Positions 2,169 through 58,721 of a stretch of DNA of 64,000 nucleotides are shown in pieces. Origin of the DNA: a virus; the IMG/VR virus record IMGVR_UViG_3300049215_000686, positions 64,001 to 128,000 of that record; one strand, written 5' to 3'. The notes beneath the pieces were generated by a model, which searched no databases, had not been told where the DNA came from, and saw only the letters and a program-made list of their open reading frames with translations. Within the stretch, counting starts at the first letter, position 1. The number at the start of each line of letters is the position of its first letter. The translations under genes were made by a program, and so were the position numbers.

Positions 2169-2627
2169 ATGACTCAAACAGCAACCGAAAAAAAGAAAAA
2201 CAAAAACCAATTGATCTTTGACTTTTCTCTCGCTCGATCGCCCGAAAAGGTCGCAGATAAAAAAGTCCCTGTAGGAACTTATTTTCGGAAACAAACCTTT
2301 TTCAATATCGACTTCAGATTTCGTCATCGGGGCTTTAACGAAATTTCCCGTCAAGCAGGAATTAACCTCAAGGAACTTTCGCCAGGCAATGTGGTTGTTT
2401 TCTTAAATACAGCCCAAACCCAAATCATCATCGCCTTTAGCGACCAAGGAATGTACCATTGGAATAATGGTAAAAGAAAAATTGAACTTCGAGCCATTGA
2501 CGATATGATCATCCGCTTCAATCGAATCGGCAAAATGGCTTACGAAGATGGATTGGCTGATTTCTTAATTAAGCGCGGACATGGCGTTGAAGACGAAAAA
2601 GTAAAAAAGAATTCGAAACTCAATTAA
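2169..2627 (+). CDS. IS66 TnpB (Orf2)-like protein
   Basis: DFRFRHRGFNEI...SPGNVVVFLNTAQTQIIIAFSDQG parallels the TnpB pattern DMRKGFDGL...SGxLFVFxNRRRDRIKILxWDGDG. Confidence 0.55.
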   Translation: MTQTATEKKKNKNQLIFDFSLARSPEKVADKKVPVGTYFRKQTFFNIDFRFRHRGFNEISRQAGINLKELSPGNVVVFLNTAQTQIIIAFSDQGMYHWNNGKRKIELRAIDDMIIRFNRIGKMAYEDGLADFLIKRGHGVEDEKVKKNSKLN

Positions 2628-2899
2628 GGCTTTTTGTTCTTAATGATGTTTTCAATATCGCCCTCGGATGACTGCCCATCCTGTCCGACAGTCTTATTTT
2701 GATCATCAATTTGAGATTGGGTATCAGTTCGGTCTTGCTGGGTGGCCGTGTTAGCGGCAGCGTCTTTTTCGCCTTTGATCCAGCGCATAAAGAAAAACGC
2801 TCCGATCCCAATCCCCAATCCAAAAACAAGTTTTAGGATGATTGTTACCAAATCACCCCCAAAAACGTTGCTCAAGATATTCAATAAATCCATGACCAT
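2624..2899 (-). CDS. small membrane-anchored protein (possible lysis-related)
   Basis: One hydrophobic segment followed by a polar tail. Confidence 0.5.
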   Translation of the reverse strand: MVMDLLNILSNVFGGDLVTIILKLVFGLGIGIGAFFFMRWIKGEKDAAANTATQQDRTDTQSQIDDQNKTVGQDGQSSEGDIENIIKNKKP

Positions 2900-3867
2900 T
2901 TTCCTTTAACGGGATCATATTCACCGATGACAGATCGCCCATGGATAGTTAAAAGCCGCAAAACGTGGAATCGAGCGGGATCAAAATCAAAAATTGCTTC
3001 ACGATCAATTTTAAAATCAGAATCAAGCGCGATTACTGAAACATTCTCATCGCCTGAGATTTCAATTTTTGAATCTTTTTGGACGATTGCCGGAATGGGT
3101 AAAGGGAGAAATTTCGTATCGTAGCCATCAATGAACCAACTGATTCTAAGCGGTCCAGAAGGTAAAAAAGCAACCCCATTGAGAACACAGGTCTTCACTC
3201 CCACTTCATCTATAAATTTATTGAGCGGAATATTTAAAATACCATTTTCAACGGGAAGGTTTACCGGATTTGGCTGAACTCCACAAAGGGAACTTTCAAA
3301 AGCCACTTGAACCTGAGAAGCGTCTCCTACGTCCGGAATCACCGCAATTTGAGTTGGATTTTTACCAGCGGCCACCTTATCGGCGAATCCCATAAAAGAC
3401 TGTCCAGCGTTAAGAACTCGAATCCACAAATGTCCAACAAACGAATGAATAACGAGCCCGCTCGAATCTTCCTCAGGAAACTCGGGAGAAACAACAAAAC
3501 TAATAAGACAACTTTGAGAAGCCTTGCCCGCCAAATAATAGGGAACCAAATTGTTGCTTAAATAACGCACGGAATCAGGCAAGGGATTATCCAGTCGGCA
3601 ATTCGTCGAAACGCGAATTGTGCCTTGGTAATATCCTTGAATTGCAAATCCCACATTATCAAGATCTTGCTCGGTTAAAACCGGACAAATCCCGATCCCG
3701 TGGAAACGCTTCCCACAAGCAGAAAATTCAGCAGAATGGTAATTGGCTTGAGTAGAGGGAATCACGGAATCATTTCTGATCTGATTCCCTCCACAAGAAC
3801 TGAGAAAAAGACTTAAGAAGAGGAACCAGAAGCCGGAGGTGCAGGCGGGGCGGGAGGATTTTGCCAT
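2881..3867 (-). CDS. putative lipoprotein
   Basis: Hydrophobic stretch plus lipobox LSSC; 328-aa ORF. Confidence 0.6.
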   Translation of the reverse strand: MAKSSRPACTSGFWFLFLSLFLSSCGGNQIRNDSVIPSTQANYHSAEFSACGKRFHGIGICPVLTEQDLDNVGFAIQGYYQGTIRVSTNCRLDNPLPDSVRYLSNNLVPYYLAGKASQSCLISFVVSPEFPEEDSSGLVIHSFVGHLWIRVLNAGQSFMGFADKVAAGKNPTQIAVIPDVGDASQVQVAFESSLCGVQPNPVNLPVENGILNIPLNKFIDEVGVKTCVLNGVAFLPSGPLRISWFIDGYDTKFLPLPIPAIVQKDSKIEISGDENVSVIALDSDFKIDREAIFDFDPARFHVLRLLTIHGRSVIGEYDPVKGKWSWIY

Positions 3868-4190
3868 CCAGAAATTGCTCCTTTAATTGCTGACACAGCA
3901 CGCATCATATAATCCATCACCTTAAGCATCGTTGCGGAAAGTGGGATATTCGCATGAGGGAATACTTCAAGAACAGGCAACACGTAAGTCTGCCAAACAG
4001 TTACAATTTTTGCCGCAAGTTCATCATCAGTCTTTGACGCGGTGAGCGAAACAATAAATTGTAAGAGTTCAATGAGGATCGTCATTACAGGAACAAATGC
4101 GATCCCGTAAGCGCCAATAATGCCCAAAATACCGAATTTTGCACCCAGCATGGCAAGAAGTGGCTGAAGAATAGAAGAAATAATGTCCAT
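3813..4190 (-). CDS. membrane protein, holin-like
   Basis: SD GGAGG upstream; 2-3 hydrophobic helices; SKTDD motif. Confidence 0.5.
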   Translation of the reverse strand: MDIISSILQPLLAMLGAKFGILGIIGAYGIAFVPVMTILIELLQFIVSLTASKTDDELAAKIVTVWQTYVLPVLEVFPHANIPLSATMLKVMDYMMRAVSAIKGAISGWQNPPAPPAPPASGSSS

Positions 4191-4247
4191 AAAAACCTCC
4201 TTAATGGAATGAACCCATTATCGAAGGCAAAAGGCAGATTGAGATTT

Positions 4248-4323
4248 TGGAGCCGCTGGACCGACTTGAACGGTCATCACAATCGTACCGGGATTGTGTT
4301 TTTACCAGTTAAACTACAGCGGC
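4248..4323 (-). tRNA. tRNA-Thr(GGT)
   Basis: Cloverleaf GCCGCTG..CAGCGGC-T-CCA; anticodon loop CCGGTAC; TTCAAG T-loop. Confidence 0.9.
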
Positions 4324-4324
4324 A

Positions 4325-4410
4325 TGGAGCCGATAGGATGATTCGAACATCCGTGGGATCTCTCCGCTCGTTTACAAAACGAGTGCAATCGTCCTCTATG
4401 CGATATCGGC
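4325..4410 (-). tRNA. tRNA-Thr(TGT) with long variable arm
   Basis: GCCGATA acceptor; CTCGT-TTTGTAA-ACGAG anticodon arm; GGA-GAGA-TCC extra arm; CCA encoded. Confidence 0.85.
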
Positions 4411-4427
4411 AATAACATCGGCGAATT

Positions 4428-4501
4428 TGGAGCCTCGTGGCTGAATCGAACAGCCGATTGCTGAATACGAATCAGCAGTTATACCGTTTAACTAACGAGG
4501 C
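4428..4501 (-). tRNA. tRNA-Thr(CGT)
   Basis: GCTGA-TTCGTAT-TCAGC anticodon arm; CCA end. Confidence 0.9.
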
Positions 4502-4516
4502 AAAGATCAGCAAATT

Positions 4517-4591
4517 TGGTGCGCGAGCCGGGAATTGAACCCGAATCTCATGACTGGCAGTCACGCATCATAGCCTTTAGACCACTCACGC
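4517..4591 (-). tRNA. tRNA-Gly(GCC)
   Basis: Anticodon loop CTGCCAG; GCGTGAG/CTCGCGC acceptor; A73. Confidence 0.9.
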
Positions 4592-4593
4592 AT

Positions 4594-4668
4594 TGGACCG
4601 GGTAGCGGGAATCGAACCCGCGAATCGACGTTGGAAGCGTCGCGTGTTACCACTAGCACTACACCCGG
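4594..4668 (-). tRNA. tRNA-Gly(TCC)
   Basis: CGACG-CTTCCAA-CGTCG anticodon arm; CCA end. Confidence 0.92.
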
Positions 4669-4727
4669 AAAGAAAACTATCTTTTACAAAATCCCCCATT
4701 TTGGATAAAATAGTTTCCATTTTTAAA

Positions 4728-4808
4728 TGGCGGGGTACACGGAAGTCGAATCCGTCTGATCTCTCGCGTGACAGGCGAGTGGCCACTCCCATCGCAGCCC
4801 CGTACCCC
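4728..4808 (-). tRNA. tRNA-Asp(GTC)
   Basis: CTCGC-CTGTCAC-GCGAG anticodon arm; G73; CCA. Confidence 0.9.
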
Positions 4809-4848
4809 AAAAACAAAAACCCCAGGAACCTTTCGGCACCTGGGGTTT
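4809..4848 (-). terminator. attenuator 1 intrinsic terminator
   Basis: AAACCCCAGGTGCC-GAAA-GGTTCCTGGGG followed by TTTTTGTTTTT, abutting the 5' end of tRNA-Asp. Confidence 0.9.
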
Positions 4849-4874
4849 GGAAACTTTTTGTTATTAAGCAAAAG

Positions 4875-4952
4875 TTACACAATCACCCCAGGAAGATTTG
4901 TATCTCCGTCCGTACCGGTTCCAGTGATGGTGTTTGTAATGAATTTGCTCAT
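4875..4952 (-). CDS. Thr/Gly/Asp-rich leader peptide MSKFITNTITGTGTDGDTNLPGVIV
   Basis: ATG..TAA, 25 aa; codons 10-18 are all T/G/D; 3' part contains TTCCTGGGGT, complementary to the terminator 5' arm. Confidence 0.85.
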   Translation of the reverse strand: MSKFITNTITGTGTDGDTNLPGVIV

Positions 4953-4958
4953 ATGTTT

Positions 4959-4987
4959 ATAATACCAAAATGAGTTCAGACCCACAA
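4959..4987 (-). promoter_or_regulatory. sigma70-type promoter for leader 1 (leaderless transcript)
   Basis: TTGTGG-17 nt-TATTAT with TG extension; ATG 6 nt after the -10; no SD. Confidence 0.6.
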
Positions 4988-5002
4988 CGGTATAGTACAG
5001 AT

Positions 5003-5194
5003 ATGCCTGACATTACCATGTGCGACAATGAAAAATGTGCGCTGCGGCAAGACTGTTACCGCTTTACGGCTCAGCCTTCTCGATTTCAGTCTTATGCCCA
5101 TTTTGAGCCCCTAGACGAAACATGTTGCGATCATTTCTGGTGCAACAGTTCAGAAAAATTGGCACCGGACACAGGAGTCGAACCCGTTTCTTGA
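5003..5194 (+). CDS. small Cys-rich phage protein (MPDITMC...CYRFTA type)
   Basis: Probable leaderless start 6 nt after TATAGT; C-terminus overlaps tRNA-Trp antisense. Confidence 0.6.
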   Translation: MPDITMCDNEKCALRQDCYRFTAQPSRFQSYAHFEPLDETCCDHFWCNSSEKLAPDTGVEPVS

Positions 5195-5230
5195 ATTTTG
5201 GAGGTTCAATTGCGCCCCGCGCTATCCGGT
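5160..5230 (-). tRNA. tRNA-Trp(CCA) with reduced D-arm
   Basis: Anticodon loop CTCCAAA; T-arm ACGGG-TTCGACT-CCTGT; G73-CCA; D-arm only GCGC-GGG-GCGC. Confidence 0.75.
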
Positions 5231-5280
5231 GTCTTATCCCTTATAGGTAATAAACTGGCTTTATAACCTATGGGTAATAA

Positions 5281-5358
5281 TGGTGCCGCAGATCCGAATC
5301 GAACGGATATTATGTCTGATCTTCAGTCAGATGCCATGACCACGTAGGCGACTGCGGC
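5281..5358 (-). tRNA. tRNA-Phe(GAA)
   Basis: TCTGA-CTGAAGA-TCAGA anticodon arm; CCA. Confidence 0.9.
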
Positions 5359-5363
5359 AAATT

Positions 5364-5439
5364 TGGTGGACCGACCCGGACTTGAACCGGGAATCCCTCG
5401 GTGCAAGCGAGGAGTTTTACCAATTAACACTATCAGCCC
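5364..5439 (-). tRNA. tRNA-Ala(TGC)
   Basis: G3:U70 pair; loop CTTGCAC; CCA. Confidence 0.93.
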
Positions 5440-5444
5440 AATTT

Positions 5445-5530
5445 TGGTCGGAGGAGCAGGACTCGAACCTGCGAAGCCCAAAGACGCGTGATTTACAGTC
5501 ACGTGGGTTAGCCGCTCCCACCATCCTCCG
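5445..5530 (-). tRNA. tRNA-Tyr(GTA)
   Basis: Loop CTGTAAA; long variable region; C1:G72 acceptor; A73. Confidence 0.88.
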
Positions 5531-5735
5531 AAATTTTCACATCAACTCCGAGTTCAAACCATCCCTTCCAGTGTTCGCCATTCCAAGTTTTTCTCTCAGA
5601 CTGAAATAGCCGCTTATTATCCCGAGATCTTCCTCCAAAAATCAAGAACATGTATTCTCCGTGTTCATGAATCCGGTTTTTGGCTCGATGGCTAATTGGG
5701 ATGAGTTTGACTTTGATACCTTTGTCCATTTCCAT
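5508..5735 (-). CDS. hypothetical protein within the tRNA operon
   Basis: ORF track; 3' end runs into tRNA-Tyr. Confidence 0.5.
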   Translation of the reverse strand: MEMDKGIKVKLIPISHRAKNRIHEHGEYMFLIFGGRSRDNKRLFQSERKTWNGEHWKGWFELGVDVKISEDGGSG

Positions 5736-5914
5736 AAATCACTTTTCCGAATTGAAATCGCCTGCATCCGTCCTTGATAAACTCGTAAAGTCCGGTTCCA
5801 ATAACTCACGATCAAGGAAATCAGTTCGTCACTTTCTCCAAGAACTTTTTGAATTTCGAAATCAATATCGAGACAACTCATGTGTCGATAAAGATGGCCA
5901 GATTTAATTTTCAT
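5642..5914 (-). CDS. hypothetical protein within the tRNA operon
   Basis: ORF track; start overlaps the previous stop. Confidence 0.45.
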   Translation of the reverse strand: MKIKSGHLYRHMSCLDIDFEIQKVLGESDELISLIVSYWNRTLRVYQGRMQAISIRKSDLWKWTKVSKSNSSQLAIEPKTGFMNTENTCS

Positions 5915-6104
5915 TTTTTGGCTTCCATCGCGTCTTTCGATACCGTTTCCAAGATCTCCGAGACCTAGACCATCCTCGCTTTGAATTTTCTCCTCGATTC
6001 GGCGGACAAATAGGGCATCGAAGTTTTACCCGCGAAGCCTTCTTATAAACCGCGCTATTGGTCGTTCCCGTTAATTCGTTATGATTTCGTCTTTTATCAC
6101 CCAT
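5904..6104 (-). CDS. small very basic protein (CPICPP..N / SWKRYRKTRWK)
   Basis: SD GGGAGG upstream, sequestered in a hairpin; R/K-rich. Confidence 0.7.
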   Translation of the reverse strand: MGDKRRNHNELTGTTNSAVYKKASRVKLRCPICPPNRGENSKRGWSRSRRSWKRYRKTRWKPKNEN

Positions 6105-6118
6105 TGCATGAATCCTCC

Positions 6119-6154
6119 CTAGTGGAAGGTCATGCGTCCTCGAATGTGCTTCAT
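6119..6154 (-). CDS. micro-ORF MKHIRGRMTFH (candidate translational leader)
   Basis: TAG stop lies at the apex of the hairpin 6106-6135 that hides the downstream SD. Confidence 0.5.
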   Translation of the reverse strand: MKHIRGRMTFH

Positions 6155-6161
6155 AATTTTT

Positions 6162-6236
6162 TGGTGGGGCCGAAGAGAATCGAACTCTTTCCTGGCAGAT
6201 TAAAAGTCTGCGGTGCCGCCTTTACACCACGACCCC
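6162..6236 (-). tRNA. tRNA-Lys(TTT)
   Basis: GCAGA-CTTTTAA-TCTGC; CCA. Confidence 0.93.
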
Positions 6237-6240
6237 AATT

Positions 6241-6315
6241 TGGCGGGATCGCAGAGACTTGAACTCTGATACACGGATTAAGAGTCCGCTGTAATAGCCG
6301 TTATACGACGATCCC
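6241..6315 (-). tRNA. tRNA-Lys(CTT)
   Basis: GCGGA-CTCTTAA-TCCGT; CCA. Confidence 0.93.
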
Positions 6316-6351
6316 CAATTTTTCCTTTCGTTTTCGTTTGTGTCGTTTCAT
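6301..6351 (-). CDS. Lys/Arg micro-ORF MKRHKRKRKEKLGIVV
   Basis: SD AAAGGA; AAA-CGA codon repeats; reads into the 5' end of tRNA-Lys(CTT). Confidence 0.5.
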   Translation of the reverse strand: MKRHKRKRKEKLGIVV

Positions 6352-6368
6352 ATCGTTCCTTTAAATTT

Positions 6369-6443
6369 TGGCTCCAGGGGCAGGTTACGCTCCTGCATAT
6401 GACGCGTTAACAGCGCGTTCCTTTACTAGTCAGGCACCCTGGA
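6369..6443 (-). tRNA. tRNA-Asn(GTT) with non-canonical T-loop
   Basis: ACGCG-CTGTTAA-CGCGT; TCCAGGG acceptor; G73; T-loop AGCGTAA. Confidence 0.82.
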
Positions 6444-6885
6444 ATATATCTTTTCTTAAGCCCCGAATCTTACACGAACTGAAAGTCCCTCTCGCCATCC
6501 CAACAATTTTACAAGCATCATGTTCTGAATGTCCTAATTCTATAAGTTCAAGAACCTTAATGAACTTTTCATCAGAAATAGTCCTGGCTTCGGACTGGGG
6601 AATATCTTTAAATCTCTCACTCAAGTCTTTCTTTGTTTTTTCTAAATGGCATGACCGACAAAGCACTTGACATTTTTTAAGTTCCGCGTCTCTTTTAGAT
6701 TGAGTCCAACTCCAAATACGTGAAGAAACTTTAGTTTTAGGATCAATATGATCTAATTCCAATTCTTGCCATGATCCACATTGAACACAAGGTCCCTTTG
6801 CATCAAACCATTCCTTACGTCTTCTCGCCATCCATTCCCTTTGATACTTTCAAAGGTACTCCCTTCTTTCTTCCCTGATCGGCAT
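6430..6885 (-). CDS. HNH homing endonuclease (in-frame TGA at codon 12; ORF track starts at 6831)
   Basis: CVQCG..LELDHIDP...CQVLCRSCH; upstream in-frame MPIREERREYL*KYQREW. Confidence 0.8.
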
Positions 6886-6906
6886 ATATACAACATACCG
6901 ATCGCC

Positions 6907-6949
6907 AAAAAACGAAAACCCCGCTCAATCTTTTACGACTGGCGGGGTT
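6907..6949 (-). terminator. attenuator 2 intrinsic terminator
   Basis: AACCCCGC-CAGTC-GTAAAA-GATTG-A-GCGGGGTT followed by TTCGTTTTTT. Confidence 0.88.
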
Positions 6950-6976
6950 CTTAGAATCTTTTTTGTTTAAACAAAC

Positions 6977-7057
6977 TTACAAGAAAGATTTCACCCCGCG
7001 AGCCACCCAATTGGTCGCATTATTTTTAAAGTTATAGGCGAAATAATTCTTGTTCAT
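6977..7057 (-). CDS. Asn/Lys/Tyr/Phe/Ala/Trp-rich leader peptide MNKNYFAYNFKNNATNWVARGVKSFL
   Basis: ATG..TAA, 26 aa; 15 of residues 2-17 are N/K/Y/F/A/W; GCGGGGT in the 3' part is complementary to the terminator 5' arm. Confidence 0.85.
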   Translation of the reverse strand: MNKNYFAYNFKNNATNWVARGVKSFL

Positions 7058-7066
7058 ATATTTACT

Positions 7067-7093
7067 ATTATACCTTTTTTTGCTAGATCGCAA
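7067..7093 (-). promoter_or_regulatory. promoter for leader 2
   Basis: TTGCGA...GG-TATAAT, 9 nt before the leader ATG (15-nt spacer, so the -35 is uncertain); no SD. Confidence 0.55.
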
Positions 7094-7101
7094 CTTTATT
7101 T

Positions 7102-7371
7102 TCACTTTTTTACAGCAGGTGACGGACTCGGAGCGGGAGCCGGCGACGCATTGGAAGCAACGGGCTTACTCCAGCAAACTTCTCCGCCCTTTGAAAGGTA
7201 ACAAATCACCTCAGTCGTTTCGCACCGAGAAAAACCAACCTTTTTATCTAACTGCAAACAAAACTTTCCCTGGATTACGGGCTTTTCTTCTTTCTTTGAT
7301 TCTTTTGCAAAGGCCAGCGAAGAAACCAACATCATTAAAAAAATCCATTTTCGCATAATGTTCTCTCTCAT
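7102..7371 (-). CDS. small secreted protein
   Basis: Signal peptide MRKWIFLMMLVSSLAFA; Cys-containing core; Pro-rich tail. Confidence 0.6.
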   Translation of the reverse strand: MRENIMRKWIFLMMLVSSLAFAKESKKEEKPVIQGKFCLQLDKKVGFSRCETTEVICYLSKGGEVCWSKPVASNASPAPAPSPSPAVKK

Positions 7372-7379
7372 TCTAAAAA

Positions 7380-7800
7380 TGGTGGAGGTGGGCGGAATTG
7401 AACCGCCGTCCAGAATCTTTCAGTCACCAAGTCATTCACACGCATATCTGGTTTTACGATCCAGCAATCAGGGTACGACCCGTTTTACCGAGTCTCCACC
7501 ACTTGGTTTATGTCCAAGAACAGGAGAGGCGTTTCCGCGTCCACCAGCCGCCAGTTTAACGTCTCGACGACCCGACGTTTTTGCCTTTCTTCTGTTTCTC
7601 GGCTCAGGCAGCCTCATTGTTTCCTAACCTAGGTCAGGCTACAAGGCGGAGATCAGCCTTACGGCTGAAATCCACGCGAACGACGTTGTCATTAGCATTT
7701 GTTGTTTGCATCTTTGTTTCCGGGGAATCCCCAAGGCAGCCTCATGCTCTGCCTGCGCGCACTCAATTTCCTCGTTATCCTGTCGAAACCTGTCACCCCC
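7380..7800 (-). ncRNA. ssrA: tmRNA; tag ANDNVVRVDFSRKADLRLVA (7634-7696)
   Basis: 5' GGGGGTGACAGGTTTCGAC; 3' GACGGCGGTTCAATTCCGCCCACCTCCACCA with G3:U70; ANDN resume motif; LVA end. Confidence 0.95.
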
Positions 7801-7810
7801 ACATTAAAAG

Positions 7811-8035
7811 TTATCCCTCTAATTCTAAATCAATTTCGGAGACCTTCTCTTTTGTTGCTTCATTGAGATGCCCCGCCCACTCGATTTCTTGCTTTAACCA
7901 AGGGTAAAGATATAGGCGAAAAAACGCAAGAACATCTCGACTCTTTGTTTGGGCCGCCTGATCATAAATCTCAATCAGTTTTTCTACCCGAATCGCCGCT
8001 TCACTCATCTCAATGATTTCGGTGAGAGCGCCCAT
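7811..8035 (-). CDS. hypothetical protein
   Basis: ORF track; GGTATATT promoter-like site near 8070. Confidence 0.55.
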   Translation of the reverse strand: MGALTEIIEMSEAAIRVEKLIEIYDQAAQTKSRDVLAFFRLYLYPWLKQEIEWAGHLNEATKEKVSEIDLELEG

Positions 8036-8158
8036 TTTATGGTCCCCTTATTTCGTTGATTCACAATGTTAATATACCAAAACGGCTATTTTATAAGAGT
8101 TCCAGGCGTGTCCAACTTGACACATTGTATAAATTGGGCGTTGCGTTATTCTTGGGAT

Positions 8159-9670
8159 ATGAAGATCCAACGTCTTTTAATAATTTTGGTCAGTGGGTTC
8201 CTTATTGAGATCACGCTTTCGGCCTGTAATGCACCTACCGATGCGAACACTCAAACCAATGATTCTTCTCAATCTTCGACACAAGACGATGTTTCCAGCA
8301 GCCCTGGCAATTCAGCCGATCAAGGAAATTCACAATCTTCAAATGCAAATTCGAACTCAAGTAATTCCCCTAAAGGAAAAGGACCATCTCAGCCAGTCCC
8401 CAATCCTTCATCTACGGCTTCACCTTCCCCTACACCAACGCCGACTCCTACACCAACTCCTACGCCAACGAATTCAGCGCCGGTAATGAGCACTCTCAAT
8501 CAATCGGGAGCAGAAAATAGCGCATTGGTATTTAATTTGGTCGCCAACGATGCCGACAACGATCCTTTAACTTATTCTTGTGTGTCAAGTTGTCCTGCCG
8601 GGCTGACAGTTGATGGGCCGACCGGCAATGTGGAATGGACGCCTGCTTTTGGTACAGCCGGGACCTATCATGTCAACTTCGGAGTATCTGATGGAGTGAA
8701 CCCCCAAGTCACCCAGTCAGTCCAAATTACAATCGCTCACACCAATCGGCCCCCTGTCATTCAGCCGCTTACGTCTCAAAGCGTGAGTACTGGACAGACT
8801 TTAACCATCACTCCCGTTATTTCAGATCCAGACCAGGATGCCTTAACTTTAACCATGAATAACCCTCTGCCCGCCAACTCTGCTTTTAATGGTACTTCTT
8901 TCAGTTTTAGCCCCACCAACGCACAAGCCGGACAATATACCGTGACCTTTAATCTCAGCGATGGTGTTTTAACGACTTCTGAAAGAGTGACTATCACATC
9001 AAACTCGGTGAACATCGCGCCGCAAATGGCTTCGATCGCCAGCCAAAGTATTTCCCAACAACAGCCCATTACATTTGCCGTTTCCGCGACCGATGCGAAC
9101 AATGATCCGTTAGTCTACAGCAGCGCGAATCTTCCAGCAGGAGCGACTTTTGCTAATAATCAATTCTCTTGGACACCTTCTTGCGGACAAAACGGGACTT
9201 ATACGCCGACCTTTACGGTAACCGATACCGGAGGTTTGACGGATACAAAATCGCCCACAATCACGGTTTCAGCCAGCGACTATTACACAGTTACTTGGAA
9301 CTCCAACATTGCTCCCTCATTATCGGGAACAAACGGAAACTCGACAAATGCCTATGCGGGAATCGGGTTTTATCTCGGAGCAGGAGGACTGACCTATTCC
9401 TATGTTGCTGAATTCGATTGTAATAACAAGACATGGAATAAGGCATGGAATGCTGGAACAAGGACGCTTTCGGTAACAAATCCGTTTGGGAGTCTCGATC
9501 CCGGCAAACATTCCTTCTTGGTCTATGTTCAAGACTCTTGTGGAACGAAATATTACCGCTTCATTCAGGTCACGGGATATAACGGCAGTTTCTCGATTCA
9601 GAAATCAGACCAAGGAGCGACTTATTCAACCGCTGGACTTTGTGGTGGAGGCCATGTTTATCAGCATTAA
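8159..9670 (+). CDS. lipoprotein with Ser/Pro-Thr linker and tandem Ig/cadherin-like domains
   Basis: MKIQRLLIILV...LSAC lipobox; PTPTPT linker; repeated N.AP...D.D.D.LTY...WTP...G.Y...V.D units. Confidence 0.85.
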   Translation: MKIQRLLIILVSGFLIEITLSACNAPTDANTQTNDSSQSSTQDDVSSSPGNSADQGNSQSSNANSNSSNSPKGKGPSQPVPNPSSTASPSPTPTPTPTPTPTPTNSAPVMSTLNQSGAENSALVFNLVANDADNDPLTYSCVSSCPAGLTVDGPTGNVEWTPAFGTAGTYHVNFGVSDGVNPQVTQSVQITIAHTNRPPVIQPLTSQSVSTGQTLTITPVISDPDQDALTLTMNNPLPANSAFNGTSFSFSPTNAQAGQYTVTFNLSDGVLTTSERVTITSNSVNIAPQMASIASQSISQQQPITFAVSATDANNDPLVYSSANLPAGATFANNQFSWTPSCGQNGTYTPTFTVTDTGGLTDTKSPTITVSASDYYTVTWNSNIAPSLSGTNGNSTNAYAGIGFYLGAGGLTYSYVAEFDCNNKTWNKAWNAGTRTLSVTNPFGSLDPGKHSFLVYVQDSCGTKYYRFIQVTGYNGSFSIQKSDQGATYSTAGLCGGGHVYQH

Positions 9671-9708
9671 AAAAAGGCCAGATCGACTTCTTGCAAATCG
9701 ATCTGGCC
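9669..9708. terminator. hairpin, probable terminator
   Basis: GGCCAGATCGA...TCGATCTGGCC with a flanking A-run. Confidence 0.6.
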
Positions 9709-9832
9709 CCGAGAGAGAGGAGTAGTATGAGCCGCTTCTTGCGGAACTCATCCACTCTGAGCGAGCAGCCATAAAAAAGCAAATGAAAAACTCTTATTTA
9801 AAGATATCAGACACAATGGTATTTTTAAAAAA

Positions 9833-58479: not shown

Positions 58480-58621
58480 TGGAAGTCCCCCAGATTTCAC
58501 TTACAAGCACGCTGGTTCGAATCCAGCCTTCTCCGGGGAAACTCGGGAGAGGTAGTCTAGTGGTTAAGACAATCGAATGTTAATCGATCAAAAACGAAAG
58601 TGATATCAACTTGGACTTCCA
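58480..58621 (+). ncRNA. Y RNA-like 2 with permuted tRNA-Asn-like domain
   Basis: GGAAGTCC/GGACTTCC; CTTACAAGC; GCTGG-TTCGAAT-CCAGC; TAGTCTAGTGGTTAAGAC D-arm; ATCGA-ATGTTAA-TCGAT. Confidence 0.8.
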
Positions 58622-58625
58622 TACA

Positions 58626-58721
58626 AGTTTGCCCGTCCCCTCTAATGACGCTTACAAGCAATCGTCCAATGGTAGGACATCTGTCACAAAAAAAAAGCGT
58701 TATTGACTTGGACGGGCAACT
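58626..58721 (+). ncRNA. Y RNA-like 3 (minimal)
   Basis: TGCCCGTCC/GGACGGGCA; CTTACAAGC; single D-arm-like hairpin. Confidence 0.7.

Follow-up and report, generated by a model that had tools for sequence, protein, structure and literature searches.

Leader-peptide attenuation is known for the genes of amino-acid biosynthesis and for a few synthetase genes; transfer RNA (tRNA) genes are regulated at their promoters (growth rate, guanosine tetraphosphate) and by processing. In the enterobacterial attenuators, such as ilvL of ilvGMEDA (Ile/Leu/Val), thrL (Thr/Ile), trpL, hisL, pheL and leuL, a promoter-proximal short open reading frame (ORF) rich in regulatory codons is followed by mutually exclusive hairpins (1:2, 2:3 and 3:4) with a terminator before the first gene, and segment 2 is covered once the ribosome has reached the stop codon. 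In phage tRNA clusters, for instance those of T4, T5, KVP40 and Mx1, homing endonucleases and small ORFs lie among the tRNA genes, and compensation of codon usage and escape from tRNA-targeting defences have been proposed as their roles. We know of no leader-peptide control described for the clusters of T4, T5 or KVP40, and full-text literature searches returned no account of tRNA genes under such control. The present analysis concerns a stretch of 64,000 nucleotides (the window; bases 64001-128000 of the 157,131-bp IMG/VR virus record IMGVR_UViG_3300049215_000686, estimated completeness 96%) in which two minus-strand blocks of tRNA genes are each preceded by a promoter-like region, a short ORF and an intrinsic terminator. 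Judged by their sequence and by modelled folds, these modules and a third one outside the window are likely to be trp/ilv-style ribosome-mediated transcription attenuators, which gate the phage tRNA blocks and feed back on tRNA supply.

At the level of sequence the modules have the defining features of leader-peptide attenuators (Table 1), including the promoter-proximal ORF, a predicted antiterminator that excludes the terminator hairpin, the terminator before the first gene and, as in ilvL and thrL, several amino acids represented in one leader. What appears to be new with respect to the known class is the target, as tRNA genes instead of biosynthetic enzymes would be controlled and the product would act directly on the sensor, as well as a probable leaderless start in place of the Shine-Dalgarno sequence of the enterobacterial leaders, up to six amino acids per leader, and phage-encoded parallel copies which divide the tRNA set among them. 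The closest precedent in terms of function is the E. coli pheST attenuator (pheM), in which leader-peptide attenuation likewise acts on the translation apparatus and not on biosynthesis; unlike the modules described here, pheST is a host gene encoding a synthetase protein, and a single amino acid is sensed. There is no sequence similarity to the enterobacterial leaders (Rfam His_leader E = 4.2 at module 3), and the Rfam leader matches at module 3 are at chance level only (rnk leader, 25.8 bits with a cut-off of 55; His_leader, 20.6 bits with a cut-off of 49).

The original prediction, made from the letters of the window, had assigned the same architecture to both tRNA blocks: a promoter, an ORF of about 25 codons without a Shine-Dalgarno sequence, an alternative hairpin, a terminator and the first gene. 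This architecture is found in both modules, with the correction that terminator 1 has an HNH endonuclease ORF as the first gene behind it instead of a tRNA. The orthologous modules of related phages lack the HNH ORF, and tRNA-Asn follows directly after their terminator; therefore, this ORF, which overlaps the start of tRNA-Asn by 14 nucleotides (nt), is probably a mobile (homing-endonuclease) insertion that has come under attenuator control. In module 2, tRNA-Asp starts at 4808, immediately behind T-run 2 which ends at 4809. This leaves no space for a promoter and implies that cluster 2 can be transcribed only by read-through.

Table 1. Features of modules 1 and 2 with their tRNA clusters (window coordinates), and modules of the related phages G011 and G012.
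Feature	Position	Strand	Description
Module 1 promoter-like region	7067-7093	-	TTGCGA 7093-7088; GTATAAT 7073-7067, 9 nt ahead of ATG; putative promoter
Leader ORF 1	6977-7057	-	ATG at 7057; 26 codons + stop; no Shine-Dalgarno
Segment 2, module 1	6993-6999	-	GCGGGGT, codons 20-22; antiterminator partner of terminator 5' arm
Intrinsic terminator 1	6906-6949	-	5' arm 6949-6941, hairpin, T-run 6918-6906; about -23 kcal/mol
HNH endonuclease ORF	6430-6831	-	Pfam HNH; between terminator 1 and tRNA-Asn
tRNA cluster 1	5160-6443	-	Called by ARAGORN, Rfam and relaxed ARAGORN
tRNA-Asn(GTT)	6443-6372	-	Cluster 1
tRNA-Lys(CTT)	6315-6241	-	Cluster 1
tRNA-Lys(TTT)	6236-6162	-	Cluster 1
Three small ORFs	6104-5508	-	Inside cluster 1; 66, 90 and 75 residues
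tRNA-Tyr	5530-5445	-	Cluster 1
tRNA-Ala	5439-5364	-	Cluster 1
tRNA-Phe	5358-5281	-	Cluster 1
tRNA-Trp(CCA), marginal	5230-5160	-	Cluster 1
Module 2 promoter-like region	4959-4987	-	TTGTGG 4987-4982, 17 nt, TATTAT 4964-4959, 6 nt, ATG; putative promoter
Leader ORF 2	4875-4952	-	ATG at 4952; 25 codons + stop; no Shine-Dalgarno
Segment 2, module 2	4884-4892	-	CCTGGGGTG, codons 21-23; copy of terminator 3' arm, pairs with 5' arm
Intrinsic terminator 2	4809-4847	-	5' arm 4847-4839, T-run 4819-4809; about -23 kcal/mol
tRNA cluster 2	4248-4808	-	Asp(GTC), Gly(TCC), Gly(GCC), Thr(CGT), Thr(TGT), Thr(GGT)
G011 (L037) module			25-codon leader rich in Asn/Ala/Lys/Gly/Tyr/Trp + terminator; tRNA-Asn, Tyr, Lys, Trp, Gly, Ala
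G011 (L037) module			Ser/Pro/Phe-rich leader + terminator; tRNA-Ser, at contig end
G012 (L038, L039) module			Asn/Tyr/Trp/Ala leader; tRNA-Asn, Tyr, Trp
G012 (L038, L039) module			Ser/Pro/Phe/Ala leader; tRNA-Ala, Ser, Ser, Pro, Pro, Phe
G012 (L038, L039) module			Leu/Gln leader; tRNA-Leu, Leu, Gln

Outside the window, the same phage carries a third tRNA cluster near the genome end, with Arg(TCT), Met(CAT), Ile(GAT) and Val(TAC), and this cluster too is preceded by a module (L005 1859-2030, which is genome 155858-156029, minus strand). It shows the order TATAAT, 6 nt, ATG, a 25-codon ORF (L005 2003-1926) with GGGGGTG near its end, and a strong terminator, with tRNA-Arg located a few bases past the T-run. 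Module 3 was a blind prediction of the attenuator hypothesis, and it held; the three modules thus precede all three tRNA clusters of the genome. Two tRNA-like remnants lie in cluster 3 (L005 1046-1117 and 1205-1257, minus strand) and are called by no tool. One of them shows a 7-bp acceptor stem and a T-arm together with CCA and an ACG anticodon-like loop, by which CGT and CGC, both used in leader 3, would be read; in the other, an acceptor and D-like and T-like arms are present and an anticodon arm is missing. Portal-based searches further yielded related phage fragments with 45-68% identity, two of which carry tRNA clusters (G011 and G012; portal 57-68% identical), and these two related contigs contain five further modules, bringing the total to eight.

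The codons of the short ORFs match the tRNAs encoded behind them, start codons being excluded from the counts for the three leaders. Leader ORF 1 contains Asn 6, Lys 3, Phe 3, Ala 3, Tyr 2 and Trp 1, which amounts to 18/25 residues cognate to cluster 1; leader ORF 2 contains 6 Thr, with all four codons used, 4 Gly and 2 Asp (12/24 cognate to cluster 2); and the internal codons of leader 3 comprise three each for Met, Arg, Val and Ile (12/24 cognate to cluster 3). For the other two clusters the counts are 2-5. When the 581 ATG-initiated ORFs of 20-35 codons in the genome are ranked for the respective tRNA set, the leaders are placed 1st, 1st and 4th, with binomial p values of 3e-6, 6e-4 and 1e-3 when proteome composition is taken as the background. 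Across all eight modules the per-module values range from 3e-6 to 2e-3, and the true pairing of leaders with tRNA sets scores higher than any other of the 40,320 permutations. The proposal that the control codons of both ORFs in the window fit the tRNAs downstream is therefore borne out, at 18/25 and 12/24 and with each ORF first of 581.

This match is confined to one reading frame. In the ORF frame of the eight modules 96/180 codons are cognate, compared with 26/180 and 29/180 in the other two; for leader 1 the figures are 18/25 against 4 and 3, and for leader 2 they are 12/24 against 3 and 3. This favours decoding by a ribosome over a signal at the RNA level. T-box riboswitches resemble the modules, as in both cases tRNA status would pick the terminator or the antiterminator before translation-related genes. 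The T-box, on the other hand, binds uncharged tRNA via a specifier codon and the T-box sequence without any ORF, whereas the signal described here is frame-specific over many codons, and no Rfam T-box match was found at E <= 1 in window 3500-8500 or at E <= 5 at module 3. The cognate codons are also crowded into the sensing window of the leaders, where a stalled ribosome would leave the antiterminator free, with 67/104 there as opposed to 22/61 in the ORF tail (Fisher p 4e-4).

These statistics bear on a sceptical explanation, according to which the ORFs are small functional peptides or chance frames, the terminators plain insulators, and the codon match a coincidence or by-product of composition. 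Short ORFs are indeed common, as the 581 candidates in this genome show, and in two contigs of other phages (L191 and L197) strong terminators precede tRNA clusters with no clear leader match. Neither chance nor composition readily accounts for ranks of 1, 1 and 4, for a pairing that surpasses all other permutations, for the frame specificity or for the enrichment in the sensing window, and of the accounts considered this is the least probable. It also speaks against this explanation that orthologous modules of the related phages have kept their composition and RNA pairing but not the sequence of the peptide; the promoter box, the ATG spacing, the open frame and the terminator are conserved as well.

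Comparison of the orthologous Asn-type leaders shows how composition follows tRNA content. The leader in the window has Phe 3, Gly 1 and Lys 3 before a block with tRNA-Phe and two tRNA-Lys; that of G011 has Phe 1, Gly 3 and Lys 2 before a block with tRNA-Gly and one tRNA-Lys; and that of G012, with Phe 0, Gly 0 and Lys 1, precedes a block without tRNA-Gly and tRNA-Lys. Phe, Gly and Lys codons therefore shift with the tRNA set, whereas homologous clusters in which leader composition fails to track tRNA content had been named beforehand as a finding that would speak against the hypothesis. The last codon of the Leu/Gln leader of G012 (L039 about 4020-3970, minus strand) is TAG, and a tRNA with a CTA anticodon, of the amber-suppressor type (L039 2725-2803, minus strand), is encoded in the cluster behind this leader.

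The terminators of the three modules consist of hairpins of -22 to -24 kcal/mol with T-runs, and a terminator is seen in 7/8 modules overall. Sites with a hairpin and T-run of this strength are rare, with five on the minus strand of the 157 kb, three of which belong to the modules. The other two (window about 11356 and 9675) were considered and rejected as leader modules. The hairpin at 9676-9715 lies directly after the stop of a plus-strand Ig-domain gene and is followed by a T-run on the minus strand alone, so that it would end antisense or convergent transcription and not that of the gene preceding it. A simple consensus terminator scan missed terminators 1 and 2, the loops of which exceed the limit of the scan. 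The position of the terminators is difficult to reconcile with plain insulators, as these would be placed upstream of a promoter and not between the promoter and its genes.

Near the ends of ORFs 1 and 2, the motif GGGGTG copies the terminator 3' arm and, like it, pairs with the 5' arm, the duplexes of segment 2 with this arm reaching -15.5 kcal/mol in module 1 and -16.2 kcal/mol in module 2. The antiterminator sequences vary by module (e.g. GCGGGGU, CCUGGGGU, CCAUGAGGU), and among 5,040 permutations of ORF tails over terminator 5' arms, the true combination gives the best pairing. Since the paired sequences differ among modules and each still fits its own arm, this amounts to compensatory covariation. 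The pairing of the GGG-GTG strand with the terminator, which had been read from the two modules of the window, is thus confirmed in silico, in its energies and by covariation.

Full-length leaders fold far better than shuffled sequences (z = -5.5, -2.7 and -4.2 for the three modules), and their minimum-energy folds contain an upstream 1:2 helix, formed by early and late parts of the ORF, together with the terminator; in module 1, segment 2 pairs with codons 5-8 in this fold. The effect of a ribosome was modelled on nascent transcripts, which were cut before the terminator 3' arm and masked over ~28 nt around each A-site codon. With the A-site at codons 2 to 16-17, segment 2 holds the terminator 5' arm in all three leaders; with the ribosome at codon 17-18 or later, through to the stop, the 5' arm is free. 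Such a dependence on ribosome position appears in 6/7 modules. The strength of the structure together with the missing Shine-Dalgarno sequence would also suit small non-coding RNA genes, each made up of a promoter, a structured RNA of ~140 nt and a terminator, with the ORFs untranslated and the tRNAs expressed by leaky read-through. Small stable RNAs are encoded in the T4 tRNA cluster, and the units would then be likened to the species 1 and 2 RNAs of that region. This possibility is highly improbable, because it leaves unexplained the frame-specific codon match, the conserved ATG spacing and open frame in eight diverged modules, and the covariation of leaders with tRNA sets, and because the units match no Rfam family at a meaningful score; at gathering score, the only Rfam families in the window are tRNA and tmRNA (transfer-messenger RNA).

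The ATG codons of the modules are found just 6-9 nt past a -10-like box, which means that transcripts would begin at or beside the AUG. The combination of a GTATAAT box, 6-9 nt and ATG occurs at seven sites in the genome, and the box is present in 8/8 modules. The same combination also heads long ORFs (window 17108; genome 156965, 52842 and 13458; all on the minus strand). As long ORFs share this spacing, leaderless starts look normal here, which suggests that they are an ordinary feature of the phage and that the box defines a phage promoter class.

Under the attenuation model, transcription would begin at the ATG or a few bases before it and give a leaderless messenger RNA, the 25-26-codon ORF of which would be translated while RNA polymerase moves on. 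The first ~16 codons would mostly be those read by the tRNAs encoded downstream. With fast decoding, the ribosome would reach the end of the ORF and cover segment 2, the terminator would form, and the tRNA genes would stay off. If a cognate aminoacyl-tRNA were scarce, an early stall would leave segment 2 free to pair with the terminator 5' arm, resulting in read-through, and RNase P would cut the tRNAs out of the transcript. As these products would restore decoding of the sensed codons and relieve the stall, each module would act as a negative-feedback loop on one tRNA group, separately for each set of amino acids. We infer the use of the promoters, translation from a leaderless start, the kinetic nature of the switch and its physiological trigger. 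The third module, the relatives, the frame specificity, the sensing window and the pairing covariation all agree, in silico, with the attenuation that had been proposed for the two blocks.

Candidate triggers would be the decay of host tRNAs after shut-off, a mismatch between phage and host codon usage, and tRNA-cleaving defences. The original prediction had named starvation or anticodon nucleases as causes of tRNA depletion, with reference to PrrC and PARIS, and nothing in the present data supports the link to anticodon nucleases. It may instead be that the switch is real and ribosome-driven but serves another purpose, either as an auto-limiting timer of early infection, in which an early burst of tRNAs shuts itself off as the phage tRNAs accumulate, or as a response to amino-acid starvation, and not as a sensor of defence-induced tRNA loss. 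The same anatomy would fit, the sequence is silent on which condition slows decoding, and Pfam annotation identified no anticodon-nuclease or counter-defence gene beside the modules. Additional tRNA would be of no help when amino acids run short, and the sorting of tRNAs by leader suggests that the supply of those tRNAs is the controlled variable. On balance, a timer or starvation response is unlikely, and feedback on tRNA supply is the preferred reading.

Several observations weigh against attenuation by leader peptides. Translation of the leader ORFs depends on a presumed leaderless start from a presumed promoter. The eight modules come from one phage clade, share ancestry and are not independent samples. 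Leader 3 has five Ser codons, yet no tRNA-Ser was detected in the genome; the proposed grouping of tRNAs by sensor is thus imperfect. A leader of G012 has Ala codons though tRNA-Ala lies behind the next terminator, which the codon match leaves unexplained. The Leu/Gln module of the same phage has no recognisable terminator, the antiterminator of the G011_a module is only weak, and the unrelated phages retrieved with a generic terminator motif give a mixed signal. In folding, the predicted difference with and without the ribosome-covered segment is seen in the nascent folds and not at equilibrium, where the terminator wins in every modelled state with the ribosome mask. This implies that the switch must be kinetic; in the trp attenuator, the terminator likewise wins at equilibrium. 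Finally, the antiterminator (2:3) is also predicted for the truncated RNA in its untranslated state, leaving the basal state uncertain.

The distribution of the design was followed in further phages. Of the cultured phages, Mx1 has the portal protein nearest to that of the present genome, with only 33% identity; it carries 37 tRNAs and no codon-matched leaders, and no such leaders accompany the single tRNAs within protein operons of the relatives. Loci anchored on NadR from 80 diverse phages contain few tRNA clusters; those inspected (L080, L094, L065, L055 and L113) are without a leader module, and the clusters in unrelated loci of this set have ordinary promoters. Contigs with homologues of a 328-residue neighbour protein (33-44% identity) carry no tRNAs, nor do the new contigs obtained from further portal relatives. 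A scan with the generic terminator motif gave 23 contigs outside the clade, six of them with a tRNA cluster past the terminator, of which five were analysed as L203 duplicates L180. L191 and L197, mentioned above, are the two contigs without a clear leader match. In L192 (about 2510-2650, plus strand) the core of the leader alternates Trp/Tyr/Cys/Phe codons before tRNA-Tyr, Trp, Phe and Cys, at a marginal p of 0.01, and in L180/L203 (minus strand) a plausible Lys/Thr/Glu/Asn/Gln/Ser core precedes tRNAs for those amino acids and is again statistically marginal. The design is accordingly firm in sequence for one clade only, and the leaders elsewhere are suggestive only.

A broader proposal, which we regard as somewhat less likely than not, is that codon-matched attenuators form a general and hitherto undescribed homeostat of tRNA supply in several phage lineages, each block being induced by slow decoding of its own codons. 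If true, this would include tRNA depletion by PrrC, PARIS-type or retron-linked cutters or by host shut-off, and the way in which phage tRNA genes are sorted into blocks would follow from the controlling sensor. Even within the one clade, attenuation would mean that the regulated product is the very molecule read by the sensor, so that no feedback on decoding capacity proposed so far would be more direct. The grouping of phage tRNAs, the avoidance of unneeded tRNAs and the possible answer to tRNA depletion during infection would be accounted for, and the module could then be regarded as a sensor, compact, portable and programmable, of how fast chosen codons are decoded.

With regard to gene content, the prediction of 13 minus-strand tRNAs in two groups was upheld, with two weak members. 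ARAGORN at default settings finds 11 of them, between 4248 and 6315, in addition to a tmRNA; tRNA-Asn (6372-6443) was added by Rfam and recovered too by relaxed ARAGORN, and the marginal tRNA-Trp (5160-5230) is called by ARAGORN only at the relaxed threshold. The second weak member is tRNA-Asp, which is missed by Rfam, and a search of viral contigs for its exact pattern gave no match. Nucleotide searches (blastn) against cultured phages returned isolated tRNA matches only. A further segment of 99 nt (58546-58644, plus strand) matches the Rfam tRNA model with 34 bits and is not called by ARAGORN.

The genome also encodes a portal protein, a DnaE-type polymerase, a DnaB-like helicase, a GroEL-like chaperonin and enzymes of nicotinamide adenine dinucleotide salvage. 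None of the three small ORFs inside cluster 1 has a Pfam match; the one of 66 residues is strongly basic and has a CxxC pair. Just upstream of module 1 and of a small signal-peptide-like ORF (7371-7102) lies the phage-encoded tmRNA (7380-7800, minus strand; 87 bits in Rfam), the 20-residue tag of which is unusual and has LVA at its end.

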